A stretch of 59,839 bases of DNA, filler included. It is 6 parts of 6 records of this genome, joined end to end, with 100 filler letters (N's around TTAATTAATTAA, not from the genome) between each part and the next. Parts side by side here need not be neighbours in the genome. Positions count along the whole stretch, not along the records: positions 32,544 to 43,359 come from SRR2962707_2122; 5 more parts are not named here. One strand, given 5' to 3'. Numbering within the stretch: the first letter of the stretch is position 1; each line of letters opens with the position of its first letter. The position numbers were made by a program, and so were the translations under genes. Positions 28,980 through 50,073 of this stretch are shown here, one piece after another. The notes under the pieces are model-generated. The model ran no database searches, was not told the DNA's origin, and worked only from the letters and a program-made list of their open reading frames with translations.

Positions 28980-31900
28980 TCAACTCAAGTTGCTATTCAT
29001 CGTCCTCAGCAGCTCGCATACTTCGAAGGTACCACTCCAAGTCGACTTTTTTGGGGTCTTGCTTAGGAGATGGAACGCCATTCTCATATCCCTCCACGAA
29101 CCTGAAACAATGGCAGACCATGAAAAACAAAGTTGGGCGGCCGTAATTTCATTATACCATGAGGAGCAATGAGATAAATCGAGAAAGTTGCGCATCTTTG
29201 GCTGTGAGGTTGCACGGATATACACACCATCGGCCGTCCGAAAAAATCAATCGCGGCGATGCAGGGAAGGATGGGGATTTCATCTGCTCGGGCTGATTAT
29301 GGACGGGTGCGTTGCGTGTCGGGGTTGAAAGCGCAGATCTTTCAACCACCTCGGATTCCGCGAGTGTCGACTCTGGAGTGTACTGCATGATGTCATCAAC
29401 ATCAACACTGCCTGTAATGAACCCACTTTCCCATGGCGTCGGTTCCGCTGCTTGAGCGGCAAACTCGGCAGCAAATTCATCGAAATCACTCAGCGAATCG
29501 TCTTCGTTGATGGCAAGGCTGGGGCCATTCGTTTCGCCGTCACCAACCAAGGCGTGATTCGTTGGAGCATTTTGGTCGCTTGGCCTGTCATTGGTGTTCC
29601 GTTCGGCAGAACTGTCCCCTTCGAAGCGGGCATAGTCTGGACATTCGCCAACGTTCGGGATTATTGTATTGGGCACTTGCGGTACGTGCGGGACCTGAAC
29701 GTCATCTCTGGTAGATAAACCATAGGGAGTCAAATTGGGTAGCGGGCGAGCTTTTGGTGTTGTTGGTTCGATCCTTTCCCCACGTATTTCTGTGCTGGTC
29801 TTGCGCTCTTTCGAATCGTGAGGCAGACACTCATCGGATGTCTCATTTCTGTGCGCGGTTGCTTCCGATAGTGCTTCTCGAAGCCCATTTCGTTCATGAG
29901 AAACATAGTCGCCGTCACCACGAAGTTTCGGATCATGTTGCCACGCATATATAGGCGCTGCAGGGCTACCTGTTTGTTTTGATCGTGTGGTCTGCTCATT
30001 CTGAGCAGGAACTCTTGCAACAGCATGATCTTGGTCACGTTCTTGCCGTGCTTTTGTCACTTGTGGGATTTTGCCAGCTTGAGCAAGCAACCTTTCATTT
30101 GCTTTGCGCAGGGCTGCTTTGCGGCGAAATCGTTTCAAGCGTTCATCGCGTTTGTGAAAGCGTTTGCGCTGAGCCTCTTCGGCCTCGGTCTCCTCTTCCT
30201 TCACACGAGTGTTCCTCACCTGCCTTGCTCTCTGAGCCGCTAAGCGTCGGGCTGCCTCAATACGAGCAGCTTCGTCTATTTCTGGGTCAGCATCGGGGAT
30301 GGAATTTGATTGTGGAACTTGTTGTTCTTGATGAACTTTCTCAACTATACCACTCTTTTTCTGTCGGTGTTGCCGGGATGGCCGGGGTGCTTGCACGCCT
30401 TTGGCACGGTGTTTACTCAAATCCCCACCTTCAGCGCTTGACTCCCTCCGGCGTTGGCCGTACTCATTTGATATACTCCTGCGACACATGGTTGTTCGTG
30501 CCTGTGGACCGTTTGCCGCAAGTTGTTGCTGATCGTTGCGACGACGTTGAGCGGCTGCTTCCCTTTTTCGTCGAGCGACTTCGGACAAGTCTTTGAGCCT
30601 TGCTGCAGTTTGAGCCTTTGTCTCTGCAATTTGCTGCTTGGTGTGGTCGCGTTGGGTTGCGCGGCGATGTTGGCGTACCTGCCAAGAATTAGAATTTTTT
30701 GCCCGACCAGAAAAAATGACAATCTTGCCGGACGCGTGGCAACGTTGCACTTGCGGTATGCGATGCAGACCATACATCAAAGTGATTTGCCACGTACGCG
30801 CTCCTTGGCTTTCTCTCTCGCTGTTTTAGGTGTTGGTGCGGTAGCACGACAGCCATGGCCAAAGTGTTGAAGTGGTGGTGATTGGTCGATAGCGGCTTGA
30901 GCTGGCGCTTCTTCATCGTCCGAGCTAGTGCTGGAACCTTCACGCAAGTCGAGCGACACATGAAGTGCTGGGGACTTTGTTTCCACAATCCGCTTGCTAG
31001 ACAATTTCACTGGCTCAAACGAAGAGCTGTGGCCGTGAAAAGTCTCGCGCATTGGTGTGACTGTGCCAGGGCGTTTTTGGAACGGTTCGTTGTTCGCTAC
31101 ACGGCCTCGATAGTGCTTTAACCCACCAACGTGCGCTTCTGACTTTGGCTCATTGTCGTGGCTTGGTGACGTTTGCAGCGCGGCGAGCCGTTGTTGGTAT
31201 CTACGATGTTCCTCATCCTGTTTATGCTGCTGCAAAAGTTTCAGTTGTTCTTTTTGTCGCTGAAGTTTTGCTTTGAGAAACTCCCTGTTCAGCACCTCTG
31301 ACTAATCAAACAAGCGCGAGGACGCGATGCAAAACCATGCAAAATGATCACAAGCCGTTGAACTGACTCTGCTCCTCCCATTTGCCGCGAAGAAATGCCT
31401 GCACCCAGACAGAATGAACAAGGACTTACCAATCGCTGCTGTTCGTCTTGAAGGTAGTCTTGGAGCGCGCGCACTCTTGGGACCGGTTGCGGTACTTGGG
31501 AGACTGATGGATTCGAAATGTTGCTGTGCGCCCATCGATCACTTGCTCTCAATTGCTGCGCTGAAACGCGAACATTCTGCGTGCCGCGTTGAGATTGGGT
31601 TGACCATTCAAAATCCGTCGATGCCTTTTCAGGTGAAGTGAATTGACTGTTGTTCGTTGACTGATGCAAATGAAAACGATTGCTTGGCTGTTGCCGCGTC
31701 GCATGCTGGTTGGTCCCACCCATCGAAGCATCCGGACCGCTTGTGGGCGCTGTCGCTTGGGCCTTCATTGGGGTACCGATGCTGCGAATGCTTGACCCGA
31801 GACTCTCCAGCAGAGCCGCAACGCTTTTGAATCCCTGCCCAATCCCATCGGTCGACGCTCCTCCAATCACTCTCTCCGAATGATTTGAAAAGTGAAGTTG

Positions 31901-32275
31901 CTCGTCGAATGTGGCGGAAGTGTTGTTGCTGGTCGCTCTTCTGCTGCGCGTGCTGTTGGGCGTGGACCTCGCAAGGTCCTCGATTTTAGCCGACGTGCAC
32001 TTGTTGACAAAAGCCCGCACGCTGGAGCAGAACAGCGCGATTTCTGCAGACGAAATGCGACTCGAAGAGCCCAGCATTTCGAAAGATGGGGCTGGAACCT
32101 GGCGCAACGACTGAGACAACGGCCACGACAGCCGCGCCTGCTTGTCTCGCACCTCGTCGACAAGCACGTTGAAGTAAGTCCGCGCTCTGGCCACCTCAGC
32201 CCGACGCTGCGCGTCGTCGGGAAGCAGCATCGCTCGCACGAGCTTTCGTCTCAAAACGTCTACTCTCTCGAGCAT
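28980..32275 (-). CDS. Multi-exon eukaryotic coiled-coil/low-complexity protein of unknown function
   Basis: Consecutive long minus ORFs 31289-32275, 30777-31295 and 29152-30780 with R/E/Q/K-rich helices; putative donors near ORF ends; no recognisable domain. Confidence 0.55.
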
Positions 32276-32543: not shown

Positions 32544-33983
32544 CGCCGCGTTCAGTGCCAGCAGGTTGGTCTGTTCAGCAATCCCCTGAATTACCTCGAG
32601 AACCGAGGTAATGTCGGTAACGTCCTTGCCGAGTTTATCGATGACTTCCGCAGCGGCGTTAATCTCTTTTGACAATTTCTGTACTGCATCCCGGGAAGCG
32701 GCAACGGTTTCAAGGGAAGCACGGCTGTCTGCATCGGCGGTGTTGGAGGCATCCGCGGTCTGTTGGGCATTCTGTGCAATTTCCCCGGCAGCGGCAGACA
32801 TCTCATTGATGGCCGTGGCCACCATATCAATCTCGGCCTGCTGTTTTTCAACGCTGTCTCGGCTGGTGCTGGCGGTACCCCGCAGGGAGGACACGTTTTC
32901 GCCAAGCTCGGCGGTGCCTTGCTGGACGTCCCGGACCACATTCTGGATATTCTCAACAAAGCTGTTGAACTCCGCCGCGAGCTTGCCGAACTCGTCGTTG
33001 GCGCTATCGTCCAGGCGCTTGGTGAGGTCCGCCTCGCCACTGGCGATTGACGCCATGGCGGCATTAAGCTTACGAACGGGAGCCATCAGCACGCGGATAC
33101 CAAAACGCAGGATCACCAGGGACACCAACAAGCCAATTACTGCGATGATCAGCCCGGTTACGCGAGCGGCGTGGACCGGCGCATTGATTTTGTCCTCGTT
33201 GATAAAAGTGCCGAGATACCACTCAACACCACGGGCACCTTTGATGCGATGGAAACCGGCAGTCCAACTGGCATCTCCGGTGTCATATTCGTGAATTTCA
33301 CCGCTGAGCCGAGGGGATTCTCCCAAAAGATTACTGATCTTCTTGCCAACCAGTTTCTGGTCCGGGTGAAACAACACGGTGCCGTCGTCACTGATCAGGG
33401 CCGCATAGCCAGTGTTGGCCAGCGTAATCGTGGAGAGCGTCTGTTCTATGGTCTTCAGGGCAATATCACCACCGACAACACCCTGGTAGGCCCCACGTTT
33501 GACCGGTGCCAGCGTGGAAATGATGGTGCCTCCAGTGCCCGCGTCCACGTAGGGTTCGGTGAACGACGCTGAGCCCTTTTGTTTCGCCTGTTTGAACCAG
33601 GGCCGCGTGCGTGGGTCGAAATCCGCAGGCAGCGTGGCTTCTGAGGCATCGTCCTTCATCAGCATATAGCCATCATCACGGCCAACATAGACGTCAATGA
33701 ACCCGCCACCGGTTGTCGCAGCGGCCAGGATAACCCTCGCCTCGGCATCGGTTTCCACCGACTCCAGCGCTTTTGCCGTTGCTTCGGTCATGGCAAGACG
33801 GGTGTTGAGCCAATCCGCAATGCTGGACGTACTCTGCGCCACGGTGTCTTCAATCAGTGCATCAACATAGGTATCCGTAGTCTCCTGTAACCGGAGGTTG
33901 CCGCTGAGCGTAAACGCCCCCATAACAAGTAAAAGCAAAATACCAAAGGCGACGAGCAACTTCTGGCCGAAACTCAGGTTCAT
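32544..33983 (-). CDS. Methyl-accepting chemotaxis protein with dCache sensor, 3'-truncated
   Basis: TM1, FDPRTRPWF / EPYVDA dCache motifs, TM2, HAMP, IAEQTNLLALNAA. Confidence 0.95.
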
Positions 33984-34079
33984 TTTCCGGGTCCTTTTCG
34001 AGACAGTCTATTCGGGGGGTCAGTCAAACAGCCTATCGGCTGTCTATCATTCATAAACTGGTTTTCGGCGTGTGCTGCA

Positions 34080-34151
34080 AAGTCTTTAACTTTATGTGAT
34101 AAGAAGTCTTTAGCTTTAGGTGATAAGAAGTCTTTAGCGCTCTCTGATAAA
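34080..34151. repeat. Three imperfect 24-bp tandem direct repeats in a divergent promoter
   Basis: aagtctttaactttatgtgataag / aagtctttagctttaggtgataag / aagtctttagcgctctctgataaa. Confidence 0.9.
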
Positions 34152-34210
34152 ATACCGAAGCAATCGACAATTCTTGCCGTCATTTCCACACCCAACGGGA
34201 GCTGCCGTAT

Positions 34211-35758
34211 ATGGCCCACGAAGAACTGCACCTCAACCTTCGTAACCTGACCAGTGATGATTACCCACAGCTCCAGCGACTGATGGACAGGGTCTACGAC
34301 GATATTGGCGGTGCCTGGCCAGAGGACACGATCGAAGCTCTGGTGCAACAGTTTCCGGATGGTCAGATCTGTATCGAAGAGTCCGGTGACCTGGTGGCCG
34401 TAGCCCTCACGGTGTGCGTCAAGTATGAGCGATTCAGCAATCCGCACACCTACGACGACCTGATCCTGCGCAATGAAAAGATCTGGCACAACGCCAAAGG
34501 CGACTCGCTTTACGGCCTCGATGTGTTTATCCACCCGGATTATCGCGGCTACCGCCTTGGCCGGCGGCTTTATGAAGCTCGCAAAGAACTCTGCCGATCC
34601 ATGAACCTGCGCGCCATCCTGGCGGGTGGCCGCATCCCCGGATATCACAAGTATTCAGACCAGCACTCTCCGGAAGAATACATCCAGCGTGTGGATCGCA
34701 AGGACATCTACGACCCGATCCTCAGCTTTCAGCTGTCCAACGACTTCCAGGTCACCCGGCTGATGCACAAGTACCTGCCGGAAGACGAGAAATCCCTGGG
34801 CTACGCCACTCTGCTGGAATGGCGGAACATCCTCTATACACCGCCGTCGCCGGTGCTTAACGTCAAGAAGACTCAAGTACGCCTGGGTGCCGTTCAGTGG
34901 CAAATGCGTGAATTTACCTCTGTTGAGGAAGTGCTGGAACAGGTGGAGTACTTCGTGGATGCGCTCTCGGATTACAAGAGCGATTTCGCCCTGTTTCCAG
35001 AATTTTTCAACGCACCGCTGATGGGCCTGACGGACCAGGTGGACCAGACACGAGCCATTCGCTTTCTGGCAGGCTTTACCGAGCAATTCCGCAATCAGAT
35101 GTCGGAAATGGCGGTCAGTTACAACATCAACATCATTACCGGCTCGATGCCCCTGCTCGAAAATGATCGGGTCTACAACGTGTCCTATCTGTGCCACCGC
35201 GACGGCCGCGTCGACGAGCAGCGCAAGATTCATATCACGCCCCACGAACGCCGTGACTGGGTCATCGAAGGCGGTGAGAAGTTCCAGGTGTTCGACACCG
35301 ACGCCGGCCGCGTGGCCATCATGATCTGTTACGACATCGAGTTCCCGGAACTGGGGCGCCTGGCGGCCATCGAAGAGGTGGATATTATTATGGTGCCCTT
35401 CTGGACGGACACCAAGAACGGATACCTTCGGGTGCGGCACTGTGCGCAGGCACGGGCGATTGAAAACGAGTGCTATGTCGTGATCACCGGTAGTGTGGGC
35501 AACCTTCCCAAGGTTGAGAACCTGGACGTGCAGTACGCCCAGTCTTCCGTATTCTCACCGTCGGACTTTGCGTTCCCCCACGATGCGGTGATGGCGGAAA
35601 CCACACCGAATACGGAAATGATCATGTTTTCAGATATGGATCTGGAAAAGCTGAAGCTGGTGCGCAATGAAGGCTCGGTGACCAACCTGAAAGACCGGCG
35701 CACGGATATTTACGAGCTCAACACGCTACAAACGGGCCAAAATGATAAAAACAGTTGA
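34211..35758 (+). CDS. GNAT acetyltransferase / carbon-nitrogen hydrolase (nitrilase superfamily) fusion
   Basis: N-terminal VFIHPDYRGYRLGRRL acetyl-CoA motif; C-terminal catalytic triad FPEF (E), QRKIH (K), ICYD (C). Confidence 0.9.
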   Translation: MAHEELHLNLRNLTSDDYPQLQRLMDRVYDDIGGAWPEDTIEALVQQFPDGQICIEESGDLVAVALTVCVKYERFSNPHTYDDLILRNEKIWHNAKGDSLYGLDVFIHPDYRGYRLGRRLYEARKELCRSMNLRAILAGGRIPGYHKYSDQHSPEEYIQRVDRKDIYDPILSFQLSNDFQVTRLMHKYLPEDEKSLGYATLLEWRNILYTPPSPVLNVKKTQVRLGAVQWQMREFTSVEEVLEQVEYFVDALSDYKSDFALFPEFFNAPLMGLTDQVDQTRAIRFLAGFTEQFRNQMSEMAVSYNINIITGSMPLLENDRVYNVSYLCHRDGRVDEQRKIHITPHERRDWVIEGGEKFQVFDTDAGRVAIMICYDIEFPELGRLAAIEEVDIIMVPFWTDTKNGYLRVRHCAQARAIENECYVVITGSVGNLPKVENLDVQYAQSSVFSPSDFAFPHDAVMAETTPNTEMIMFSDMDLEKLKLVRNEGSVTNLKDRRTDIYELNTLQTGQNDKNS

Positions 35759-35903
35759 TGAACCGCCTGAGAGCTCTATCGTATGACACTGAACACGTTG
35801 CCAAACCAACAGAGTGTGGCTATTGTTTAACCATATACTTTCAGGAACACGCCCTCGGGGTGTCGTCCGGACCCCCTCGGGGTGCAAAAGAGATCACTTT
35901 TAG

Positions 35904-36302
35904 ATGAACGAAGCACTACCGGATCTTGTCGCACATTTTCACATCAAGCGTGGCCTCTTTCGCAGGGAGCGTGTACAGGCCGCGCTGTTCGAGCTGGATC
36001 ACTTCGGATGTGTGATGAAGACGGACAAGATATTTAACCCCGGTGATACGGTTATTCTGGATCTCGTGATGGAAATGCCGTTTGACGACATCAGGGCGGA
36101 TGGAATTACCGGCCTGGTAACGGAACGCAGGAAACACTGTAGCAATTTCTTCTATTCCGTTGATTTCGTAGAACTCAATGACAACTCCTCGTCTGCCCTG
36201 AGCGAAAAACTCAAGCGCATTCGTGAGGTGGTGCTCAAGAAGCAGACGCTAAAATCCAGACGTTCCTCAGGGCCCGCCTCCAGCATTCGGCAACTGGCCT
36301 GA
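35904..36302 (+). CDS. Hypothetical protein, PilZ-like beta-barrel
   Basis: ELDHFGC (D/NxSxxG-like), PGDTVILDL, YSVDF pattern; RxxxR loop not evident. Confidence 0.5.
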   Translation: MNEALPDLVAHFHIKRGLFRRERVQAALFELDHFGCVMKTDKIFNPGDTVILDLVMEMPFDDIRADGITGLVTERRKHCSNFFYSVDFVELNDNSSSALSEKLKRIREVVLKKQTLKSRRSSGPASSIRQLA

Positions 36303-36349
36303 ACTCACCAACGCCCCACATCAACTTGCACTTCAAGGAGAAAGTCCTC

Positions 36350-37120
36350 ATGGCGAAGAAAGCCAACAAGCAAAGCGTTGATAAAGTCGTCAAGAAAGTG
36401 AACAAAGAGTTCGATAAAACGTCATCACAGATCGAAAAGCTGATCAACGACGCCCTCAAGCAGTTCGACAGCCTGCAGAACCAGATTCAGGAACCCGTCC
36501 GCAAACTGTTGAAGGAAGTGGATGAGCTTCGTGATCGTGAAATGAAACGTTTCAACGAAGAATTTGAACGTCGCTTGGGTGAATTCCACGATTTGCAAAA
36601 CAATATCCTGGACCGCCTTGGTATTGCCAGCAAGGAAGCCAGCGATGATGCGAAGAAGGTCGCAGGCCAGGCCGCCAAGAAGGCCAGCCCTGCTGCCAAA
36701 GGCAAGTCAGCTCCGAAAAAATCCACCGCCAGTAAGACAGCGGCCAAAAAACCGGTCGCCAAGAAGCCCGCCACACCAAAAGCGGCAACTGCAAAGAAAG
36801 CCGCCAAACCCAAGGCGAGCACCGCCGCCAAAAGTCCGGCCGCAGCCACTAAAGCCGCTCCCAAGAAAGCCGCCACGGCCGCGCGGAAGCCAGCGGCAAA
36901 GCCGGCTGCAGCAACACGCGCTCCAAAGCCGAAGGACAAGAGCGACCTGACCCAGGTTAAAGGTATTGGGCCGGCCACCGCCCGCAAAATGAAGGAAGCC
37001 GGTATCACCTCGGTTGATCAGATCGCCAATCCGTCTGACGCGGACAAAGAAAAGCTTCAGGCATTTTCAAGCGTGAAAGGCTTTAACACCTTCAGCGACG
37101 AAGCCAAGAAAGTTATTTAA
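36350..37120 (+). CDS. Coiled-coil + K/A/P-rich histone-H1-like + helix-hairpin-helix protein
   Basis: ATG 36350 after AAGGAG; amphipathic N-terminus, AAKKP-like repeats, DLTQVKGIGPATARKM HhH motif. Confidence 0.75.
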   Translation: MAKKANKQSVDKVVKKVNKEFDKTSSQIEKLINDALKQFDSLQNQIQEPVRKLLKEVDELRDREMKRFNEEFERRLGEFHDLQNNILDRLGIASKEASDDAKKVAGQAAKKASPAAKGKSAPKKSTASKTAAKKPVAKKPATPKAATAKKAAKPKASTAAKSPAAATKAAPKKAATAARKPAAKPAAATRAPKPKDKSDLTQVKGIGPATARKMKEAGITSVDQIANPSDADKEKLQAFSSVKGFNTFSDEAKKVI

Positions 37121-39396
37121 TGCAACAATCCGAACAGCCTGTTTTACGGGACATTGTCCTGATTGGCGGCGGACACAGCCACGTAGGCGTTCTCAAGCGC
37201 TTTGCCATGAACCCAGTGCCTGGTGTCCGCCTTACCCTCATCTGCAGGGATACCCATACACCCTACTCCGGAATGCTTCCCGGGTATGTGGCTGGGCATT
37301 ATTCCTACGACGACGTCCATATAGACCTCAGCAAACTGGCCGAGTTCGCGGGCGCGCGCTTCTACCGCGATGAAGTTGTTGGCATCGACCGCCATCGAAG
37401 ACGTGTGGTCTGCCGCTCCCGACCGGACGTGCCTTACGACATTCTGTCGGTGAATATCGGGTCCGCTCCCAAGGTCGGTGACGTCAGCGGCGCAACTGAA
37501 CATGCAGTGCCCGTCAAGCCTATCAACGGATTCAACAATCGCTGGCTGTCATTATTGTCGCGGCTGGAAAACCATGACGGCCCGATGACCGTTGCTGTGG
37601 TCGGCGCAGGTGCAGGTGGCGTTGAACTCACACTGGCCATGCAGTTCCGGCTACGAAATGAGCTCGAAAAGCGCGGCCACGACCCGGACCAGTTGCACTT
37701 TCATCTGTTTGATGCAGACCAGCAGATCCTGCCTACCCACAACGCCAGGGTGCGTGCGGTATTCGCTGACACACTCGCAAGCCGTGGGGTGAAGGTTCAC
37801 CTGGGATCCGCAGTCTCAGAGGTCGAGGCCAATCGTTTGACCACGGAGTCCGGCGACACCCTGTCAGTTGACGAAGTGCTCTGGGTCACCCGTGCCGGCG
37901 GCCCCGAGTGGCTGCGGGATACCGGCCTGGCCCTGGACGACGGTGGCTTTATCCGGGTGACGGACACCCTGCAGACAGAAACCGACAACGATATCTTCGC
38001 GGCGGGTGACATTGCCAACGTTGTAAATCACCCCCGGGAAAAAGCCGGCGTATTTGCCGTTCGTCAGGGCCAGCCACTAGCGGACAACCTCCGCCGCCAT
38101 GCCCTCGGAAAGCCTGCGAAGCCATTCCGGCCGCAGAAAAAATGGATGGCGCTGATCAGTACCGGCGACAAATTCGCAGTGGCCTCCAGAGGTGACCTGT
38201 CATTGGCCGGTTCTTGGGTCTGGCGCTGGAAAAACAGCATTGATAGACGCTTCATGGCGAAATTCAATGATCTTCCCGCCATGGAAGAGAACGCCGCCCT
38301 GCCCGACACCGGCGCCGCACAAAACCCCGAGGAAGCGTCCCAGGCCATCTCCGCGGTGGCCATGCGTTGCGGTGGCTGCGGAGCCAAAGTCGGCAGTACC
38401 GTGCTGTCACGGGCCCTCGGCGAGCTGCGACCAATAGAGCGGGATGACATCCTGATTGGTCTACACGCCCCAGACGACGCCGCCGTACTGACCGTCCCAC
38501 CCGGAAAGGCGGTGGTTCACACCGTCGATTTCTTTCGCGCCTTTATTGACGACCCCTATGTGTTCGGCCGGGTTGCCGCCAATCACGCCCTGGGCGACGT
38601 GTTTGCCATGGGCGCCGAAGCTCAGAGTGCCACCGCCGTAGCGACCGTGCCCTACGGCATAGAGTCCAAGGTGGAAGACGTGGTTTACCAGATGATGTCC
38701 GGCGCCGTGGAAGTGCTGAATGAAGCTGGCTGCGCGTTGGTAGGCGGCCATACGGGTGAAGGCCGTGAGCTGGCACTGGGCTTTGCCGTCAACGGGTTGA
38801 TTGATCCGGATGACGTCATGAGCAAGGGCGGCCTGCGGGCCGGAGACGCTCTGCTGCTGACCAAGCCCATCGGTACCGGGACCCTGTTCGCTGCCCACGC
38901 CAAACTTGCCGCGAAAGGCCGCTGGATTGATTCTGCCCTGGCCTCAATGATGCAGTCCAACAAAGACGCGGCCCAGTGCCTGCGCCGATATGGTTCACGA
39001 GCCTGCACCGACGTAACGGGTTTTGGTTTGCTTGGCCATCTGGTTGAGATGACGCGCCCCTCTGGCGTTGATGCGGAGCTCGATCTCACGGCAATACCGA
39101 TTTTGCCTGGCGCTGAGGAAACTGCAGCAGCAGGTATCCTCAGCTCCTTGCAGCCGGCCAACATTCGTCTCCGGCGTGGTATTCGAGACCAGGAAAAGTG
39201 GGTCAACCATCCTCGCTACCCATTGATCTTCGACCCGCAGACCGCCGGCGGACTGCTGGCCAGCGTGCCCGCTGACCAGGCGGATGCCTGTATCAGTGAG
39301 CTGAAAGCAATGGGCTATCCCCACACTGCCATTATAGGGCGGGTGTTGCCGCAGGATGAGAGCGGCCCCATCGAGCCCATCACACTCAGGGATTGA
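37120..39396 (+). CDS. selD: Selenide,water dikinase fused to an N-terminal FAD/NAD-dependent oxidoreductase domain
   Basis: N-terminal IGGGHSH, YSGMLPG, VGAGAGGVEL, FAAGD; C-terminal MRCGGCGAKV, DDAA, TVDFF, GGHT, TKPIGTG, TDVTGFGLLGHL, DPQTAGGLL. Confidence 0.93.
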   Translation: MQQSEQPVLRDIVLIGGGHSHVGVLKRFAMNPVPGVRLTLICRDTHTPYSGMLPGYVAGHYSYDDVHIDLSKLAEFAGARFYRDEVVGIDRHRRRVVCRSRPDVPYDILSVNIGSAPKVGDVSGATEHAVPVKPINGFNNRWLSLLSRLENHDGPMTVAVVGAGAGGVELTLAMQFRLRNELEKRGHDPDQLHFHLFDADQQILPTHNARVRAVFADTLASRGVKVHLGSAVSEVEANRLTTESGDTLSVDEVLWVTRAGGPEWLRDTGLALDDGGFIRVTDTLQTETDNDIFAAGDIANVVNHPREKAGVFAVRQGQPLADNLRRHALGKPAKPFRPQKKWMALISTGDKFAVASRGDLSLAGSWVWRWKNSIDRRFMAKFNDLPAMEENAALPDTGAAQNPEEASQAISAVAMRCGGCGAKVGSTVLSRALGELRPIERDDILIGLHAPDDAAVLTVPPGKAVVHTVDFFRAFIDDPYVFGRVAANHALGDVFAMGAEAQSATAVATVPYGIESKVEDVVYQMMSGAVEVLNEAGCALVGGHTGEGRELALGFAVNGLIDPDDVMSKGGLRAGDALLLTKPIGTGTLFAAHAKLAAKGRWIDSALASMMQSNKDAAQCLRRYGSRACTDVTGFGLLGHLVEMTRPSGVDAELDLTAIPILPGAEETAAAGILSSLQPANIRLRRGIRDQEKWVNHPRYPLIFDPQTAGGLLASVPADQADACISELKAMGYPHTAIIGRVLPQDESGPIEPITLRD

Positions 39397-40363
39397 GACG
39401 GTCGCCTTTGGCCCTGGCCTTCTCAATCGCAGTGAGCAGGGCCGCTTGCTCAGCTTCAGGAACAAAGCAAGAGGCGAGTTCGGTGACGCGATCGGTCAGT
39501 TCCCCGAGATATTCGGGGGATTGTTCCGCCCACAGTAACACCTTCGCAAGATCAGCCTCGTCGCCTACACGGAAGTACCCCGGGTAATCTTCACCCAGTA
39601 GACCAATATTGCCGGAGATGTCCGACGCGATAACCGGCAGCCCTGCACGACAGGCTTCGGATACGACATTAGCGCCTCCTTCCATCACCGAGCTGATAAC
39701 CATGGCACGGCAACGGTTCATAAGCTGATGGGTGGACGGTCTGTCAATTTCGCCAAGCCACTGAAAACGCGGATTGGCCTCCTGTTCGGCTATGGCTCGC
39801 CGAGCCCAGTCATGGCTGTGAGCCTTGCCTGCATTCAGCACCCGGATGGTCGAACCTGGCGGCAATGTCCTCGCCGCGATTGCGGCCCTCAGAGGGTCCT
39901 TCTCCTCGCGCAGGTGTCCGATAACACAGACATCGAAATGCCTGGTATCGACGCCTGCATTACCCCCGGGCCGATCGGCGGATTGCAACACCGTCACCAG
40001 CTTTGGCACGAAACGCTCGGGAATATCCCGGCCAACACGATGGTGGAGCCCCACAAGGCAATCCGCGAGGGCCATGGAATGGAGGGTTTGCTCCGGGTAG
40101 CGGTACTGGTGGTCGTATATGTCCGTGCCCGTAAGCACAACGATTATTGGCGTTTCCGGGTTGTGGTCACGGAAGCGAAGAACGGCCTCATGGCTCCTCC
40201 AGGCGTGCAGGGCAATGTACAGGTCGCAGGGCTCGTTGTTGTATTCGGTCACAACGAAAACCCGGTGTCCGGCCTGCTCAAGCAACCGGCACCATCGGTC
40301 CGCCGTGGCCCGATTACCAGCCCTGGAGCCCGGTAGCGCCGGGGTATTCAGGATGATTTTCAT
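39386..40363 (-). CDS. senB: GT-B glycosyltransferase, SenB-like selenosugar synthase
   Basis: GNRATADRW, ALHAWRS, VLTGTDIY, GHLREEKDP, SSVMEGGANVVSEA; adjacent to selD. Confidence 0.8.
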   Translation of the reverse strand: MKIILNTPALPGSRAGNRATADRWCRLLEQAGHRVFVVTEYNNEPCDLYIALHAWRSHEAVLRFRDHNPETPIIVVLTGTDIYDHQYRYPEQTLHSMALADCLVGLHHRVGRDIPERFVPKLVTVLQSADRPGGNAGVDTRHFDVCVIGHLREEKDPLRAAIAARTLPPGSTIRVLNAGKAHSHDWARRAIAEQEANPRFQWLGEIDRPSTHQLMNRCRAMVISSVMEGGANVVSEACRAGLPVIASDISGNIGLLGEDYPGYFRVGDEADLAKVLLWAEQSPEYLGELTDRVTELASCFVPEAEQAALLTAIEKARAKGDRLNP

Positions 40364-40539
40364 GAGTGTCGGTTTCCATCAAGATTTTCATTTTTTGCCG
40401 GATACCCCTAACCTGATTGGCTCATAGAATCGTATAGCTGTTCAGAGTTGCAGTAAATCACGGTATTCTGGATAGCTTCGGGCTTCCGGTCCGGACATGT
40501 GACCCCGCTAAATTCAGCTCCAGACACAAGGAAATTCAA

Positions 40540-41409
40540 ATGGCTTTGAAATTGATACGGAAGTTCGCTGTCGCCAGCTTACTGACCTTGCTCTCTTCAG
40601 CAACCGTTTCAGCCCAGACACTAGTCTTCACCGCCATTCCCGATGAAGACGAAACCAAACTGGTGGAACGCTTCACGGGTATCGCCGATTACCTGGCAGG
40701 AGAGTTGGACGTAGATGTTCGCTATATCCCTGTCAAATCCTACGCCGCCGCGGTTTCAGCCTTCCGCAACAACCAGGTCCAGCTAGCCTGGTTCGGCGGG
40801 CTTTCCGGCGTGCAGGCCCGCGAATTGGTTCCCGGCTCTGAAGCGATTGCCCAGGGCGTGGAAGACAAAGCGTTTTACACTCATTTCATTGCCCACAAAA
40901 GTACCGGACTTGACGAGATGGAAACCCTGTCCGACGAACTCCGGGGGAAGACCTTTACCTTCGGTTCCAAGGGGTCAACCTCCGGTCGCCTGATTCCGGA
41001 GTACTATATTCGCGAATCCTTTGATGACAGCCCCGACGACGTCTTCAGCCGTGTAGGCTTCAGTGGCAATCACACCCGCACCCTTCGTCTCGTAGAGGCG
41101 GGCACCTACGATGTTGGCGCGATCAACTTCTCAGTGTGGGACAAGGAAATGGAAAACGGCAACATTGATACAGACGCGGTGAAGGTCATCTGGACAACGC
41201 CGTCGTACCCGAACTATCAGTGGAGTGTTCGCGGCGACGTCAACGAACAGTTCGGTGAAGGTTTCCAGAAACGGCTTCAGGAAGCCCTGCTTGCGATGGA
41301 CGACCCTGAATTGCTTGAAAGCTTTCCCCGTAGTGGTTTCATCCCAGTCTCCAATGACGCTTACGAGCCGATCCGGGTAGTTGGAAAGCAGATCGGAATC
41401 ATCGATTAA
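40540..41409 (+). CDS. PhnD-like periplasmic binding protein (putative selenium-compound ABC transporter)
   Basis: Signal peptide, FTAIPDED, LAWFGGLSGVQAR, FGSKGSTSGRLIP; divergent from senB. Confidence 0.85.
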   Translation: MALKLIRKFAVASLLTLLSSATVSAQTLVFTAIPDEDETKLVERFTGIADYLAGELDVDVRYIPVKSYAAAVSAFRNNQVQLAWFGGLSGVQARELVPGSEAIAQGVEDKAFYTHFIAHKSTGLDEMETLSDELRGKTFTFGSKGSTSGRLIPEYYIRESFDDSPDDVFSRVGFSGNHTRTLRLVEAGTYDVGAINFSVWDKEMENGNIDTDAVKVIWTTPSYPNYQWSVRGDVNEQFGEGFQKRLQEALLAMDDPELLESFPRSGFIPVSNDAYEPIRVVGKQIGIID

Positions 41410-42059
41410 TGTCGGGATTCGATCTATCCGGCCTGACGGCGTCTTTTGGTGGAGAGCGGGTGATTGGCCCGCTCTCCCTCAGTGTCAGGGAAGGAGAGCG
41501 CGTTGGCCTGGTGGGCCGCAGCGGCGCCGGAAAATCCACTCTGATCCGGCTTGTCTATGAGCAGGTGGAGCGCCTGGCAGCATTGGTCCCCCAGGACCTG
41601 GGACTGGTCAACGCGTTACCGGTATTCCACAACGTATACATGGGCCGCCTCGATGCCCACGGCAACTGGTACAACATGGTTACCCTGGTTCGGCCATTCA
41701 CCCGGGACAGCCGTGACGTCAAAAGCCTATTGTCGGAACTGGGGATGACCGAGAAAGCCTGGATGCCCACCGCATCGCTGTCCGGCGGACAGCGCCAGCG
41801 CGTGGCCATCGCCCGTGCCCTTTACCGGCAGTCAGGACTTTTGTTGGCGGACGAGCCTGTCTCTGCCCTGGATGGGCCGCTTGCCCACCAGGTTATGACG
41901 TTATTGAGAGAGCGCTTCAAGACCAGCGTTATCGCACTCCATGATGTCGAGCTCGCTCTGGAATACTGCACCCGTATCGTGGGTATCCAGGACGGGCAGA
42001 TCGCGCTGGACGAGTCGAGCGAAAAGCTCACACCGGCCGACATTGCGCCACTCTACTGA
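41409..42059 (+). CDS. PhnC-like ABC ATPase
   Basis: GRSGAGKST, LSGGQRQRVAIAR, ADEPVSALD, LHD; TAATG coupling. Confidence 0.92.
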   Translation: MSGFDLSGLTASFGGERVIGPLSLSVREGERVGLVGRSGAGKSTLIRLVYEQVERLAALVPQDLGLVNALPVFHNVYMGRLDAHGNWYNMVTLVRPFTRDSRDVKSLLSELGMTEKAWMPTASLSGGQRQRVAIARALYRQSGLLLADEPVSALDGPLAHQVMTLLRERFKTSVIALHDVELALEYCTRIVGIQDGQIALDESSEKLTPADIAPLY

Positions 42060-42084
42060 CTCAACCGGCCCAGATTCCACTCCT

Positions 42085-43359
42085 ATGCTGTCTTCGCCAA
42101 CCGTCAAAACCAGCCTGATCTTTATCGCCATCGCCCTGGTAGGCCTGGTGTTTGCCGATATCGCTATCACGGCAGCCAATCCCTGGAAAGATCTTGGCCG
42201 GTTCTTCCTGGGCGTAATAACACCGGATTTTTTCAGTACCGAAGGGCTGGCAACCGCCCTGCTTCGGACGGTTGCCTTTGCCTTCGTTGGCGTCGCTCTC
42301 GGCAGTATCAGCGGCTTTCTTCTGGCGCTTGTTTATCGCTGGATGCCGGTTCGGATTCTGTGCGCGTTTGTGCGGGCGATACATGAGCTGTTCTGGGCGC
42401 TTATTTTCCTGCAATTTTTCGGCTTCCATCCGCTGACAGGCGTTCTAGCCATCGCTATCCCCTACGCCGGTATCTTCGCCAAGGTCTATTCGGAGATCCT
42501 GGAAGAAGCCGACCCGGAACCCGGTCGCCTGTTACCGCCCCGTACGGGCGTTGTTTCGGCCTTCCTGTACACCAAAATACCGGATTGCTGGGTGCAGCTG
42601 CGAACCTACACCGCGTACCGGCTGGAATGCGGCTTGCGCTCCAGTGCCATCCTTGGCTTTGTTGGCTTGCCAACCCTCGGCTTCTACCTGGAATCGGCCT
42701 TTTCTCAAGGCCACTATTCCGACGCCGGCGCCATGCTGATCCTTTTCTACGTGCTGATAGCCACCATGCCGCTCTGGGTAAAGCCGAAGCTGTTGCCCGT
42801 TTATATCGTTGGCGCACCGTTTTTTCTTGGCGAAGGTCTCCCGATTGTCTGGAGTAACGTCGGCCGGTTTTTCACCCAGGACATCGTGCCGTCACCACTG
42901 CGCGGAGAAGAAGGCTGGGCCGGCATGGGCGCGTGGCTGGGGGACATGTTTGTCAATCAGGCCATGCCGGGCATCTGGAACACGGTAATCCTCACCCAGG
43001 TGGCCCTGGTTGCAACCGGGATCATTGCACTACTGGCCTTCCCGTTGATATCGACTCACTTCGGCGGGCCTGTTCGCCGTACCTCGGGGCATGTCTTCCT
43101 GGTGATCATGCGTTCCACGCCGGAGTACATCCTGGCGTATATCCTTTTGCAGCTATGGGGCCCGTCCATGCTGCCCGCCGTTGTTGCGCTGGCATTGCAT
43201 AACGGGGGCATCATCGGCCATCTGATTGGCCGGCAATCCAGCACCATCCGGTTACGCCCGGATGCGCCGATTGGTCTTAATCGGTATACCTACGAACTGG
43301 TGCCCAGGGTCTATCGTTCATTCCTGGCGTTCCTGTTCTACCGCTGGGAAATCATCATG
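42085..43359 (+). CDS. PhnE-like ABC permease with two fused repeats, 3'-truncated
   Basis: Repeat 1: RAIHEL..YRLECGLRSSAILGFVG; repeat 2: RSTPEY..YRWE. Confidence 0.88.
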
Positions 43360-43459: not shown

Positions 43460-43511
43460 GTGATTTGGCCGGCCGGCTTGCAGCCACGTAAAATAAGTAG
43501 CTAAAGGGCCG
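43460..43511 (+). ncRNA. SAM-II (SAM-alpha) riboswitch, 5' edge clipped
   Basis: GTGATTTG..CCGGCTTGCAGCCACGT..AATAAGTAGCTAAAGGGCCG fits the recalled SAM-II consensus; lies upstream of metA. Confidence 0.85.
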
Positions 43512-43571
43512 ATGCTGGAAAGTCGGTTCGTCGCAACTTATATTTGTTCGAACCATCAGCGAGTATCCAAA

Positions 43572-44504
43572 ATGCCAATTCGTATTCCAAATGCCCTTCC
43601 TGCCCGTGAAGTACTGGCCAAAGAAGGCGTGATGATTATGGATGAAACAACGGCGGCCCGTCAGGACATTCGCCCGTTGCAGATTGCATTGCTCAATTTG
43701 ATGCCAAACAAAATCAAAACGGAAACGCAAATTGCGCGCCTTATCGGCTCGTCGCCGCTTCAGATTGATCTGACGCTTGTGCGCATTGGCAGCCATGTGG
43801 CTAAAAATACATCGGAAGATCACCTCATCTCATTTTATCAAACATGGGATGAGATAAAGGACCGCAAATTTGACGGCTTTATCATCACCGGTGCGCCGAT
43901 TGAAAAAATGCCTTTTGAGGACGTCAATTATTGGCCGGAATTGAAAGAGATTCTTGATTGGACAACGACGAATGTTCATTCCAGCTTTTTCATTTGCTGG
44001 GGAGCAATGGCTGCGATCAACTATTTCCATGGCGTGCCAAAGCACCTATTGGAGAAAAAGGCGTTTGGTGTTTACCGGCATAAAAATCTGCAACCGGCTT
44101 CGCCTTATCTGGCAGGCTTTTCAGATGATTTTTCGATTTCTGTCTCACGGTGGACAGAGGTGCGCGGCGCTGACATTCCAAAAGATAGTCCGCTTGAAAT
44201 TTTGATGGAGGCCAATGAAACGGGCCTGTGTCTCTTGCACGAAAAATTTGCCAATCGCCTCTATATTTTCAACCATATTGAATATGATTCAACGTCACTA
44301 TCGGATGAGTATCATCGCGATAAGGAAAGCGGTGTGGATATCGATATTCCGGCCAATTATTTCCCCGAAAATGACCCGACGAAGAAGCCCCTCAACCGCT
44401 GGAAAAGCCATGCTTTCCTATTGTTCGGCAACTGGCTAAACCAGATGTATCAAACCACAGAGTTTGATCTCAACGAGATTGGCAATGATCGGAAAAAACC
44501 ATGA
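43572..44504 (+). CDS. metA: MetA-family homoserine O-acyltransferase, probably acetyl-CoA specific
   Basis: MPIRIP, QDIRPL, LNLMP, ITGAPIE, ICWGA catalytic Cys, HIEYD. Confidence 0.95.
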
Positions 44505-44947
44505 GTGAAGTGACCATTCGCCCCGTTGAACGCGGCGACTATGATGCATGGCATGCCCTATGGACGACCTATCTCGAATTTTATGAATCAAGCGTCAAAC
44601 CAGAAATTTATCTGTCGACTTTTGATCGTTTCTTCGATGATGAAACCTATGAGCCAAATTGCTATGTAGCCGTTTTAGACGGCAAACTCATTGGCCTCGT
44701 TCATTTCATGTATCACCGCCACAATTGGCATTTGGAAAATGTCTGCTACCTGCAAGACCTTTATGCTGATCCAGCAGTGCGCGGCATGGGTGTTGGGCGG
44801 AAACTTATTGAAGCCGTCTATGCACGTGCCGACGAAGACGGCGCCGCCAATGTCTATTGGCTAACGCAAGACTTTAACGCTGAAGCACGCAAGCTTTATG
44901 ATCGCATTGCAAAGCTAACACCATTTATAAAATACTCGCGCAATTAA
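44501..44947 (+). CDS. GNAT family N-acetyltransferase
   Basis: [27 protein letters not shown]. Confidence 0.9.
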
Positions 44948-45029
44948 AGAACGTGTACTTCATCAATTGCCGCACTTGGCTTTGGTGCTGTGAATGCCTA
45001 TGTCCGATGTAGCAAATAAAGAGGACGCC

Positions 45030-46160
45030 ATGACCACAGCACCGACAAAAGAAGCCGTACACGCAGCACTCGCGAAGATCGGCTTGCCTGATGGCAAGTC
45101 ACTGGATGCCTCTGGCCGCGTATCGGATATTTTCATCGCCGATGATAAGGTCTTCTTTTCCATTTCCTGCGATGCAGCCGATGTGGAGCGCTATGAAGAT
45201 GTGCGCCTTGCCGCCGAGCAGATGGTCAAGAAAATTCCAAATGTTAAAGGCGCTATGGTCGCACTCACTGCAGAGAAAAAAGCAGGCGGTCCTAATGCGC
45301 AGCCTGCCCAAACTGCAGCGCCGAGCCCAAATCCTGCGGGCGGTCAAAAGCCGCGCGTGGGGGTTCCCGGCGTTAAACATATTGTTGCTGTCGCATCGGG
45401 CAAAGGCGGCGTTGGCAAATCAACAACCGCGATCAACATTGCCCTCGGCCTTCAATCCCTCGGCCTCAAAATTGGTGTTTTGGATGCCGATATTTATGGA
45501 CCTTCGTTGCCGCGCCTCTTAGGCATAACCGAAAAGCCCGAAGCCATAGACGGCACAATATTGAAGCCAATGGAAAAGTTTGGCCTGCAAGTCATGTCTA
45601 TCGGCTTTCTGGTTGAAGAAGAAACGCCGATGATCTGGCGCGGCCCAATGGTCATGTCAGCGCTCACACAAATGCTGCGCGAAGTCGCATGGCACGATAT
45701 CGATGTGTTGATTGTCGACATGCCCCCTGGCACAGGCGATGCGCAATTAACAATGGCGCAGCAAGTGCCGCTTGCGGGCGCAGTGATTGTTTCAACGCCG
45801 CAGGATTTATCGCTGATAGATGCGCGGCGCGGCCTGAACATGTTCCGCAAAGTGAATGTGCCAGTGCTCGGCATTGTCGAAAATATGAGCTACTTCATCG
45901 CGCCAGATACCGGCGCGCGTTATGATATTTTCGGCCATGGCGGCGCGAAGGCTGAAGCTGAAAAGCTCGGCATACCATTCCTTGGCGAAGTGCCACTGGT
46001 TATGAAAATTCGCGAATATTCCGATGCGGGGACGCCAATCACCATGCAGGAACCAGATGGTCCGCACGCCGCAGCTTATAAGCAGATCGCTGCTGCAGTC
46101 GCAGAACAAATGGAATTAGCGCAGGGCAGCCACAAAGCGCCATCTATCGTTTTTGATTAG
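45030..46160 (+). CDS. apbC: Mrp/ApbC iron-sulfur cluster carrier ATPase
   Basis: SGKGGVGKST, DADIYGPS, WRGPM, DMPPGTGD, ENMS; ATG 45030 after GAGGA. Confidence 0.93.
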   Translation: MTTAPTKEAVHAALAKIGLPDGKSLDASGRVSDIFIADDKVFFSISCDAADVERYEDVRLAAEQMVKKIPNVKGAMVALTAEKKAGGPNAQPAQTAAPSPNPAGGQKPRVGVPGVKHIVAVASGKGGVGKSTTAINIALGLQSLGLKIGVLDADIYGPSLPRLLGITEKPEAIDGTILKPMEKFGLQVMSIGFLVEEETPMIWRGPMVMSALTQMLREVAWHDIDVLIVDMPPGTGDAQLTMAQQVPLAGAVIVSTPQDLSLIDARRGLNMFRKVNVPVLGIVENMSYFIAPDTGARYDIFGHGGAKAEAEKLGIPFLGEVPLVMKIREYSDAGTPITMQEPDGPHAAAYKQIAAAVAEQMELAQGSHKAPSIVFD

Positions 46161-46168
46161 AGTTTAAA

Positions 46169-46192
46169 AGAGTAGGCGCTAGCGCCTACTCT
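46169..46192. terminator. Perfect 24-bp palindrome between convergent apbC and livM-like genes, possible terminator
   Basis: agagtaggcgct|agcgcctactct, overlapping the minus-strand stop codon. Confidence 0.5.
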
Positions 46193-47492
46193 CCGGTATC
46201 AGCCCCTTGGGTGCAAAACGCAGCACCAGCAGCATAATAATGCCCATCGCCATCAGGCGCATATAGGCCGCGCTATCAAGCAGATGCAGACGCAATGGAT
46301 TTGCTTCATCCATGCCCGACGTAATCAGGTCGATGAACCATAGGCCTACCGGCTCGGCTTCCACCCAAAAGAACCAGACGAGAAAACCGCCCAGGATCGC
46401 GCCCCAGTTGTTGCCAGAGCCGCCGATGATAACCATTGCCCAAATCAAGAATGTATAGCGCAGCGGCGAGTAAGTGCCCGGCGTAAATTGCCCGTCCAGC
46501 GTAGTCAGCATTGCGCCCGCAATACCAACAACGGCAGAGCCAAGAACAAACACTTGCAAGTGACGCCCTTTAACATCTTTACCCATCGCCTCAGCGGCCG
46601 TTTCATTATCACGGATTGCGCGCATCATACGGCCCCAAGGGGAGCGAAGGGCGCTCTCGCAAAGAAACAAAATGATCAACAAAACAATCGCAAACAGACC
46701 AGCATAGCTGAGCTTGACGACGATCGAAGACAGATCAATGACATCCATGTTGAAGTAAGTCGCCCATGATTGAAGCACCGGCGATTGCTGAATATCGACC
46801 TCATAGGGCACTGGAAAAGGGCGCGGTAAACCTGTGACGTTTTTAACGCCGCGCGTCAGCCAGTCTTCATTTTTCAGAACTGCAATAATGATTTCGGAAA
46901 TACCAAGCGTCGCAATCGCCAAATAGTCTGAACGCAGACCAAGCGACACTTTGCCGATCAGCCAAGCAGCCCCGCCAGCGAATATACCGCCGACCAACCA
47001 AGAGAAAATGATCGGCATGCCTAAACCGCCCAGATAACCTGTCGCGGCAGAATCCGTGCTTTCAATTGCTTCAACAGCAGGATCAAAGAAATAGCGCGCG
47101 CCGAAATATCCAGCGATAAAAACAATCGCAATCAAGAGACCACGAGAGCGCCCCTTCATCTCCCGATAAATCCAGACGATACAGGCGATTGTCGCAGCCA
47201 TGACCAGAAAAGCCGCGATAAGGCGATACCCGCCAATTGAGATCGTCTCTGCCACAGGTTCTTTTGACACCAGCACAGCAGCAACGCCGCCTAAGGCAGC
47301 AAAGCCCATAATTCCAACATTCAATAGGCCCGCATAGCCCCACTGAATATTAACGCCGAGCGCCATGACGGCTGAGATCAAGCAAAGATTGAGTACAGCT
47401 AGCGCCAGCGACGCGCTTTGCACATAGCCAACAAGGACAAGCAAAATTGCCATAACAGCAAAGAGCGATGAAATTCGAAGCTTGTTGCTCAT
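46179..47492 (-). CDS. Branched-chain amino acid-type ABC permease (LivM-like)
   Basis: WGYAGLLN, LRSDYLAIATL, SPWGR..RAIRDNE, IIGGSGN. Confidence 0.9.
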   Translation of the reverse strand: MSNKLRISSLFAVMAILLVLVGYVQSASLALAVLNLCLISAVMALGVNIQWGYAGLLNVGIMGFAALGGVAAVLVSKEPVAETISIGGYRLIAAFLVMAATIACIVWIYREMKGRSRGLLIAIVFIAGYFGARYFFDPAVEAIESTDSAATGYLGGLGMPIIFSWLVGGIFAGGAAWLIGKVSLGLRSDYLAIATLGISEIIIAVLKNEDWLTRGVKNVTGLPRPFPVPYEVDIQQSPVLQSWATYFNMDVIDLSSIVVKLSYAGLFAIVLLIILFLCESALRSPWGRMMRAIRDNETAAEAMGKDVKGRHLQVFVLGSAVVGIAGAMLTTLDGQFTPGTYSPLRYTFLIWAMVIIGGSGNNWGAILGGFLVWFFWVEAEPVGLWFIDLITSGMDEANPLRLHLLDSAAYMRLMAMGIIMLLVLRFAPKGLIPESRR

Positions 47493-48508
47493 ACTGATTG
47501 TCCTCTAAAAATACCGGTCGGACGCACCAGAAGAACCACAACAAGAATGACGAAAGACACAGCAAATTTATATTCTGTCGAGAGCAATTGCACCAAACCA
47601 TCGGGCACATTATCGCCCGGCATAATGTAAGTAAGAACCCGCTTATAGGCGAAGGTCACCGTGATTTCAGAAAACGCGATAACAAAGCCGCCTGCGATGG
47701 CACCAATAGGGCTACCTAGCCCGCCAACGATAGCAGAAGCAAAAATAGGCAGAAGCAATTGCAGATAGATGAAAGGCTTATAGGTCTTATCCATGCCGTA
47801 CATCGTGCCCGCAATTGTTGCCAATCCAGCCGCCAATATCCATGCAATCAAAACCACGCGCTCAGGATTAACACCTGAAAGCAACGCTAGATCTTCATTG
47901 TCCGAATAGGCGCGCATAGATTTGCCCGCGCGAGTGCGATTGAGAAACCAAAACAGCGCGATAACACAAAGCAGTGTCACAACGACTGTGATGCCCTGTG
48001 TGGTACGCAGCGCAATGCCTTCATCTAAGCCAGACCATTTTTTAAATTGGCCCGCAGTAAAAATAAACCGAGCGCCGTCACCCATCGAGCGATCATCTGG
48101 ACCGATGATAAAACGGGTCAATCCGCTGTAGAAAAACATAACCGCCAAAGACGCGATAAGATAAATAACCGGCGGTGATTTTTTCGCGCGGTGAAAGCGA
48201 TAAACAACGCGGTCGGTGAGCAGAGCCAGCGCAATTGTCGCCAAGATGCCGAATGGCAAAGCCAGCAATTCGGTCGGTAAGAAGCCAAGTGAAATGCCCT
48301 GCGCCTGCAAAAACCAAGTCACCAAAATCACAGCCATCGTGCCGAAGGCCATCAACTCGCCATGGGCAAAATTTGAGAATCGCAAAATGCCGTAAACAAG
48401 GGTGACACCCAGCGCGCCAAGCGCCAACTGTGATCCATAGGCGAGCGCCGGAATGAAGAGATAATTTGCAAGCAACGCAAGTGGGTTTAAAATTTCCATG
48501 TCAATCAA
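47489..48508 (-). CDS. Branched-chain amino acid-type ABC permease (LivH-like)
   Basis: ALGVTLVYG..NFAHGE, GKSMRA, GGLGSP, RPTGIF; start may be ATG 48499. Confidence 0.9.
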   Translation of the reverse strand: MIDMEILNPLALLANYLFIPALAYGSQLALGALGVTLVYGILRFSNFAHGELMAFGTMAVILVTWFLQAQGISLGFLPTELLALPFGILATIALALLTDRVVYRFHRAKKSPPVIYLIASLAVMFFYSGLTRFIIGPDDRSMGDGARFIFTAGQFKKWSGLDEGIALRTTQGITVVVTLLCVIALFWFLNRTRAGKSMRAYSDNEDLALLSGVNPERVVLIAWILAAGLATIAGTMYGMDKTYKPFIYLQLLLPIFASAIVGGLGSPIGAIAGGFVIAFSEITVTFAYKRVLTYIMPGDNVPDGLVQLLSTEYKFAVSFVILVVVLLVRPTGIFRGQSV

Positions 48509-49994: not shown

Positions 49995-50026
49995 AAGTTT
50001 TCTCTCAAACTTCGAACGAAAAATGC

Positions 50027-50058: not shown

Positions 50059-50073
50059 CAACTTTAAACGCGA

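Follow-up and report, generated by a model that had tools for sequence, protein, structure and literature searches.

Relation to described selenometabolite pathways

The ovoselenol (ovs) pathway, reported from Marinobacter vinifirmus and Halomonas utahensis, comprises the genes senC, senB, ovsA and ovsM (Kayrouz et al. 2024, PMC11030361). According to that account, the four genes co-occur, are found mainly in Marinobacter, and are separated on the chromosome of M. vinifirmus, which makes ovoselenol from selenite and whose ovsA mutant accumulates SeGlcNAc; production is reported there for M. vinifirmus and H. utahensis only. The other closely related system is the senA-senB-senC selenoneine cluster of Variovorax paradoxus (Kayrouz et al. 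2022, bioRxiv 10.1101/2022.04.13.486033), described in a preprint that also remarks on a putative selenate transporter encoded in the vicinity of many sen clusters. Here we describe a locus encoding a SelD fusion (senC), a selenosugar synthase (senB) and an ATP-binding cassette (ABC) importer, located on one of six contigs in a 59,839-nucleotide stretch of DNA, hereafter the window. A sequence-only reading of this DNA had proposed that the last enzyme of the pathway lay beyond the contig break or elsewhere, or was absent or new. We conclude that the locus, from a bacterium resembling Marinobacter salarius, is very probably the module (senC-senB plus the ABC importer) that provides selenium and the selenosugar for the ovoselenol pathway already described. 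It thereby counts as an ordinary case of a known pathway in a known split arrangement, because split ovs genes are reported in PMC11030361 and a putative sen-linked selenate transporter in the 2022 preprint. The relevant features are as follows (window coordinates).

32544–43359 (10.8 kb): contig of the locus, one of six in the window
37120–39396, plus strand: senC, type II NADH dehydrogenase (NDH-2)-like flavoprotein (residues ~11–382) fused to SelD (residues ~415–746), 758 aa
39386–40363, minus strand: senB, selenosugar synthase (GT-B Se-glycosyltransferase; TIGR04348), 325 aa
40364–40539, no strand: divergent intergenic region of 176 bp between senB and the transporter operon, with presumed promoters
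40540–41409, plus strand: periplasmic binding protein (PhnD1-like; TIGR04553), 289 aa, divergent from senB
41409–42059, plus strand: ATP-binding subunit, PhnC-like, 216 aa; start overlapping the stop codon of the gene before it
~42085–43359, plus strand: ABC permease made up of two PhnE-like halves and incomplete at the contig end; likely ATG at 42085, the open reading frame (ORF) opening at 41941

Judged by its relatives, the locus follows the same four-gene logic as the ovs pathway, with ovsA and ovsM away from senB, as published for M. vinifirmus (PMC11030361), and its senB–binding protein–phnC–phnE block has the same upstream neighbors as that of M. vinifirmus FB1 (L014). With the V. paradoxus cluster (2022 preprint) it shares the chemistry leading from selenophosphate to a selenosugar, as well as conserved SenB active-site residues, but no senA adjoins these genes on the contig. 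A selenoneine cluster proper, in which senA accompanies senB and senC and EgtD is present, was found neither on the contig nor in the relatives examined. Gene order and strands are as the sequence-only reading had stated, with senB convergent with selD (the two overlap by 11 nt) and divergent from a PhnD/C/E-like transporter.

OvsA and OvsM are encoded elsewhere in relatives

The top match in a search with the window SenB was the complete genome of M. salarius R9SW1 (locus L001), to which the whole locus contig is 98.7% identical at the nucleotide level over 10.8 kb. In R9SW1, the 7 kb beyond the position of the contig break contain no pathway gene and no EgtB/SenA/OvsA-type sulfoxide/selenoxide synthase (NHISS); that stretch encodes two small hypothetical proteins, an ABC-2 exporter, a DUF192 protein and a patatin. 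The opposite flank of the locus carries genes for a methyl-accepting chemotaxis protein, a DUF4442 protein and RecQ, and again no pathway gene.

Two genes in the R9SW1 genome encode FGE-sulfatase domains. One (546805–548157), situated 1.14 Mb from senB (1686448), encodes the one NHISS of this genome, which matches OvsA of H. utahensis (PDB 8U41) at 644.7 bits (E 1.3e-192) and SenA structures at ~177 bits. It is an orthologue of the crystallized H. utahensis enzyme and, by alignment, keeps the OvsA pocket residues M401, Q405, Q430 and A431; this Met/Gln/Gln-Ala pocket reportedly distinguishes OvsA from SenA, where Tyr and Asn-Phe are found instead (PMC11030361). The gene adjoining ovsA encodes an N-pi-methyltransferase of the OvsM type (TIGR04345, 298.9 bits; cut-off 170). 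The second FGE-domain protein was considered as a last enzyme and rejected: it has 318 aa and is neither EgtB- nor SenA-like.

Three relatives were surveyed (G001, G002 and G003: R9SW1, a complete Marinobacter metagenome-assembled genome (MAG), and M. vinifirmus FB1). All three encode OvsM and an OvsA-type NHISS; ovsA and ovsM are adjacent in M. salarius and lie on different contigs in M. vinifirmus. EgtD was found in none of the three, nor was SelA, and SelU (TIGR03167) scored above its cut-off in each. The evidence thus favors a last enzyme encoded elsewhere, one of the options of the sequence-only reading, and supports neither its absence nor its novelty; extension past the break in R9SW1 yielded no pathway gene, and the genome search yielded OvsA. 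That reading had added that a canonical ovsA nearby would reduce the locus to a known pathway, and the ovsA of R9SW1 does so in substance, although it is not nearby.

As a separate observation, the SenA model NF041186 scores OvsA just over its cut-off of 420 (R9SW1, L081:889–2358, 426.8; M. vinifirmus, L082:1000–2331, 424.7). Because of this, OvsA genes are probably annotated automatically as selenoneine synthase, though structure match and pocket residues identify them as OvsA.

Co-occurrence across the genus and in sequencing runs

We sampled 151 genomes from the genus of R9SW1, calling SenB at the TIGR04348 cut-off and OvsA at E<=1e-60. SenB was above cut-off in 130 genomes, with senB split over two contigs in one more (G012), and OvsA matches were present in 129, several of them being fragments at contig ends. 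When the two tables were cross-read, OvsA was present in 128 of the 131 SenB-positive genomes as against one of the 20 SenB-negative genomes (G023), with 19 genomes having neither. A wider SenB search of species-representative genomes gave 322 relatives; the 80 best of these were retained and comprise 17 Marinobacter-type loci and 63 from other taxa. Within 10 kb of senB, an NHISS was encoded in none of the 17 Marinobacter-type loci, compared with 46 of the 63 loci from other taxa.

In eighteen sequencing runs, half or more of the words sampled from window positions 36326–43359 are present; one of these runs, X1, which may be the source of the locus, contains the full set (1.00). A 5497-nt contig from X1 covers L081:876–3200, comprising all of ovsA and ovsM of R9SW1, with 24 substitutions and no gaps; these substitutions result in four amino-acid changes in OvsA and introduce no stop codon into ovsA or ovsM. 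The differences recur in runs X14 and X15, and in X2 a single contig extends over the full ovsA-ovsM stretch of R9SW1.

Enzymes of selenophosphate and selenosugar formation

The three profile searches proposed by the sequence-only reading (TIGR04348, TIGR04553 and TIGR03169) all gave matches above curated cut-offs. Within the SelD fusion, the N-terminal 380 residues match TIGR03169 ('Nterm_to_SelD') end to end at 516.3 bits (cut-off 310), and the SelD domain matches TIGR00476 at 302.6 bits (cut-off 125) over profile positions 6–310 of 311 (both NCBIfam); the score against TIGR04369 ('fusion_not_SelD'), 479.1 bits, is under the cut-off of 700. Among solved structures, E. coli SelD (3u0o) aligns with the C-terminal half of the fusion at 169.9 bits, and type II NADH dehydrogenases align with the N-terminal half at 66–77 bits, the best being 4nwz (77.4 bits). 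The likeness to TIGR03169 proteins and type II NADH dehydrogenases concerns the N-terminal domain, which in the window is fused to SelD. A Cys-Gly-Ala-Lys stretch is readable in the translated SelD domain, and we take it to hold the equivalents of the active-site Cys and Lys of E. coli SelD. A literature search on the family identifiers returned no paper naming TIGR04553 or TIGR03169, the two articles listed being SenB papers that contain TIGR04348 alone, and by this search no experimental function for the fused domain was found.

Of the 17 Marinobacter-type loci, 13 have the fusion beside senB and four, that of M. vinifirmus among them, do not; whereas the window SelD is flavoprotein-fused and beside senB, M. 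vinifirmus has a plain, unfused SelD of 345 aa located 400 kb from senB. Compared with the window, the R9SW1 record (CP007152.1) has 11 scattered single-base deletions over 10.8 kb, two of them in the selD fusion, one in senB and one in the permease gene, where they break the frames; the window copies are intact. Pseudogenization of the R9SW1 selD fusion was considered and set aside, the frame breaks probably being sequencing errors given the scatter of single-base deletions.

Turning to SenB, the window protein matches TIGR04348 at 399 bits (cut-off 300) over profile positions 1–309 of 310 (NCBIfam), and the five motifs cited for it by the sequence-only reading are all present in the translation (GNRATADRW, ALHA, LTGTD, GHLREEK and EGGANV). 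It matches the V. paradoxus SenB structures (8jjn, 8fbx) at 147.5 bits. Alignment with 8jjn places N17, T20, ALHA, LTGTD, GHLREEK (K155), EGGANV and a downstream Glu in the window protein, keeping the equivalents of V. paradoxus N20, T23, H58, T83, T85, D86, R155, K158, E231 and E239. The only differing position among those compared is V157, which is Glu in the window SenB. Residue roles were taken from the mutagenesis reported in PMC10891094 (N20/T23/E231, K158, E239, the T83/T85 pocket and the EGGAxV motif). On this comparison the window SenB looks enzymatically active. The earlier enzyme assignments, SelD as a source of selenophosphate and SenB of a Se-glycoside, together with a linked ABC importer, likewise appear right by homology.

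An Rfam search of the locus contig at E<=0.1, including the region between senB and the transporter, matched no family, and that intergenic region contains no inverted repeat, although two short two-copy direct repeats were seen. A regulatory RNA or operator at this site, considered as a candidate, was rejected on these grounds.

The linked ABC importer

Against the 'putative selenate' family TIGR04553 (cut-off 250) the binding protein scores 418 bits; its score against PhnD (TIGR03431), 153.8 bits, is under the cut-off of 261.1. The ATPase scores 167.4 bits against PhnC (TIGR02315; cut-off 266.1) and the permease 162.7 bits, in two stretches, against PhnE (TIGR01097; cut-off 216.7). All three subunits are thus under the equivalog cut-offs of a canonical PhnCDE phosphonate transporter. 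The translated ATPase contains GRSGAGKST, LSGGQRQR and LLLADEP, which we take to be the Walker A, ABC signature and Walker B motifs. The permease gene of M. salarius R9SW1 extends ~190 nt past the position of the contig break.

The closest described transporter is PhnD1-PhnC-PhnE (PDB 7S6G, 5LQ5; PMC10284923), of which Synechococcus PhnD1 (7S6G) is the closest structure to the window binding protein, at 227 bits. Pocket residues are conserved (Tyr, Ser-Thr-Ser, His, Asn and a capping Tyr), with exceptions at Ser123 and Asp203. Unlike picocyanobacterial PhnD1, the window protein has its gene beside senB, as do homologues in several phyla, and belongs by score to TIGR04553 and not to PhnD. According to PMC10284923, Synechococcus PhnD1 binds phosphite better than phosphate or methylphosphonate. 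The authors of that article see a paradox in the tight binding of phosphite by picocyanobacterial PhnD1, given that its hosts are unable to use this compound; selenite and selenate did not come up in a term search of the text.

Homologues of the binding protein are encoded in the fetched flanks of 27 of the 80 SenB loci (the best 80 of 322), in several phyla. At the position of Asp203, the proton acceptor of PhnD1, the window protein carries Asn. The 27 SenB-linked homologues divide into 10 with Asn and 17 with Asp there, that of M. vinifirmus being among the latter. The Ser123 position is Gly in 24 of the 27. Replacement of Asp203 by Asn was considered as a family mark of a switch to fully ionized oxyanions and was rejected, since it is not family-wide.

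In a separate comparison with M. algicola DG893 (L004), nucleotide identity across the locus is a mosaic. A 2.8-kb block (window 39344–42144; senB, binding protein, phnC and the permease start) is 68–74% identical, with flanks at 88–96%; at the protein level, identities are 72% for SenB, 73% for the binding protein and 75% for PhnC, while the SelD fusion and the permease reach 97% and 95%, respectively. This pattern suggests that the senB–binding protein–phnC block was replaced by recombination; the Asp/Asn difference in the binding-protein pocket falls within it.

Proposed pathway

We propose that the PhnD1-like importer would take up a small selenium oxyanion, and that the flavoprotein domain fused to SelD may help to supply reduced selenium. 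The SelD domain would then make selenophosphate, as homology and published SenC biochemistry indicate, and SenB, judged by homology and its conserved catalytic residues, would transfer selenophosphate to UDP-GlcNAc to give SeGlcNAc. Finally, OvsA would selenylate histidine at C5 and OvsM would then methylate N-pi to yield ovoselenol, the genes for both being located far away on the chromosome. As no other SelD was found in the closest relatives (G001 and G002), which carry selU, tRNA 2-selenouridine synthesis is probably supplied by this SelD as well.

A more tentative extension, which we consider less likely than not, concerns the front end of this pathway. The SenB-linked binding protein might be a high-affinity receptor for selenite (or selenate), its pocket being that of a phosphite binder and selenite sharing the three-oxygen pyramidal shape of phosphite, with the SelD-fused NDH-2-like flavoprotein reducing the imported selenium and passing selenide directly to the SelD active site; the Asp/Asn pocket alleles could then tune which selenium oxyanion enters.

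Alternative explanations and weight of the evidence

The best-surviving alternative, which we nevertheless regard as quite unlikely, is that the SelD fusion and importer serve mainly tRNA 2-selenouridine synthesis and that the transporter is an ordinary PhnD1-type phosphite/phosphate importer lying beside senB by chance. The presence of selU in all three relatives, the status of the fusion as the sole SelD of two of them, and a pocket equal to that of Synechococcus PhnD1, a binder of phosphite, phosphate and methylphosphonate, fit such a role. A chance association is difficult to reconcile with the 27 of 80 loci in which the binding-protein gene is found beside senB, which include Caldithrix, Cytophagia, Latescibacterota and Blastocatellia MAGs, with the scores that place the protein in TIGR04553 and under the PhnD cut-off, or with the convergent overlap of senB and selD. 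Moreover, a service to selenouridine is compatible with the ovoselenol pathway and does not replace it.

That the organism has no SenA- or OvsA-type enzyme, with a selenosugar or the product of an unknown new enzyme as its end product, is very improbable. An NHISS is missing from the 10-kb surroundings of senB in every one of the 17 Marinobacter-type loci, as it is from the 7 kb past the break in R9SW1; three of the 131 SenB-positive genomes of the genus have no OvsA match, and 17 of the 63 loci from other taxa have no adjacent NHISS, though many of these are short contigs. Against this stand ovsA-ovsM elsewhere in the nearest genome, OvsA in 128 of 131 SenB-positive congeners, an intact ovsA-ovsM contig in the likely source run X1, and the split arrangement published for a proven ovoselenol producer (PMC11030361). 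The suggestion of the sequence-only reading that a selenosugar or an unknown selenometabolite is the product is unsupported. Least credible is synthesis of selenoneine by a SenA encoded elsewhere: SenB and SenC are common to both pathways and the relative's NHISS exceeds the NF041186 cut-off, but that enzyme has far higher scores to OvsA than to SenA structures (644.7 versus 177 bits) and the OvsA rather than the SenA pocket, it is adjoined by an OvoA-C-terminal-type N-pi-methyltransferase, and EgtD, the maker of hercynine, was found in 0/3 relatives.

Several points weigh against assignment of the locus to the ovoselenol pathway. The evidence for ovsA and ovsM comes from relatives and sequencing runs and not from the same replicon or cell as the locus. 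X1 is a mixed sample with ~41 Mb of contigs, in which the ovsA-ovsM contig shows co-presence in the sample and not linkage, and X1 may be the source itself and hence no independent support. No OvsA match was found in the SenB-positive genomes G075, G114 and G124, whose assemblies are 2.6–3.2 Mb. The window SenB shares only 58% identity with the SenB of M. vinifirmus, the species studied experimentally, and its sugar donor could be different, because V157, reported to contact the acetyl group of UDP-GlcNAc in the V. paradoxus enzyme (PMC10891094), is replaced by Glu. M. vinifirmus, the proven producer, uses an unfused SelD, which leaves the role of the fused form here putative. Lastly, the importer pocket is that of the phosphite/phosphate-binding PhnD1, and the selenium transport suggested by gene linkage is a function that it may have.

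Composition of the window and neighboring genes

The window consists of six contigs joined by five N44-TTAATTAATTAA-N44 linkers, at 6022, 25416, 32444, 43360 and 52817. The break at 43359/43360, as the sequence-only reading had noted, is real, with a linker beginning there; the locus start that it had placed at 36350 is wrong, falling inside an unrelated helix-hairpin-helix ORF, with the selD fusion starting at 37120. The remaining ORFs on the locus contig are as follows.

32546–33983, minus strand: partial methyl-accepting chemotaxis gene
34211–35758: carbon-nitrogen hydrolase family protein, 515 aa
35904–36302: 132-aa ORF with no family match
36326–37120: Ala/Lys/Pro-rich protein with a C-terminal helix-hairpin-helix domain (PF14520)

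Every one of the 17 Marinobacter-type loci retains the 132-aa ORF, and 16 retain the helix-hairpin-helix ORF, with or without the SelD fusion; both ORFs are probably outside the pathway.

NCBIfam and Pfam scans identified no SelA/SelB, SelU or FGE-sulfatase/DinB-type gene on contig 32544–43359, and a tRNA search found none in the whole window. The earlier statements on selA and selB hold for the contig; that on selU holds for the contig only, as the three relatives carry selU elsewhere. The assembly is mixed, with the window contigs deriving from different organisms: two of them, 6122–25415 and 43460–52816, were compared with the M. salarius genome, gave only short matches of 66–75%, and are not Marinobacter. 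A Pfam scan of 48 ORFs from the window contigs found no NHISS. Because the contigs come from unrelated organisms, gene absence from those neighboring the locus carries no meaning for its host. On another contig, seven consecutive ORFs (25548–32275; 98–542 aa) have no Pfam match at E<=1e-5.

Significance

What looks in Marinobacter like an 'orphan' senB/senC locus is very probably the split form of the ovoselenol pathway that the literature already documents, and it gives no lead to a new selenometabolite. The main gain is correct annotation, with little beyond it. The uncharacterized front end of the pathway, comprising the importer and the flavoprotein-SelD fusion, may be its interesting part.

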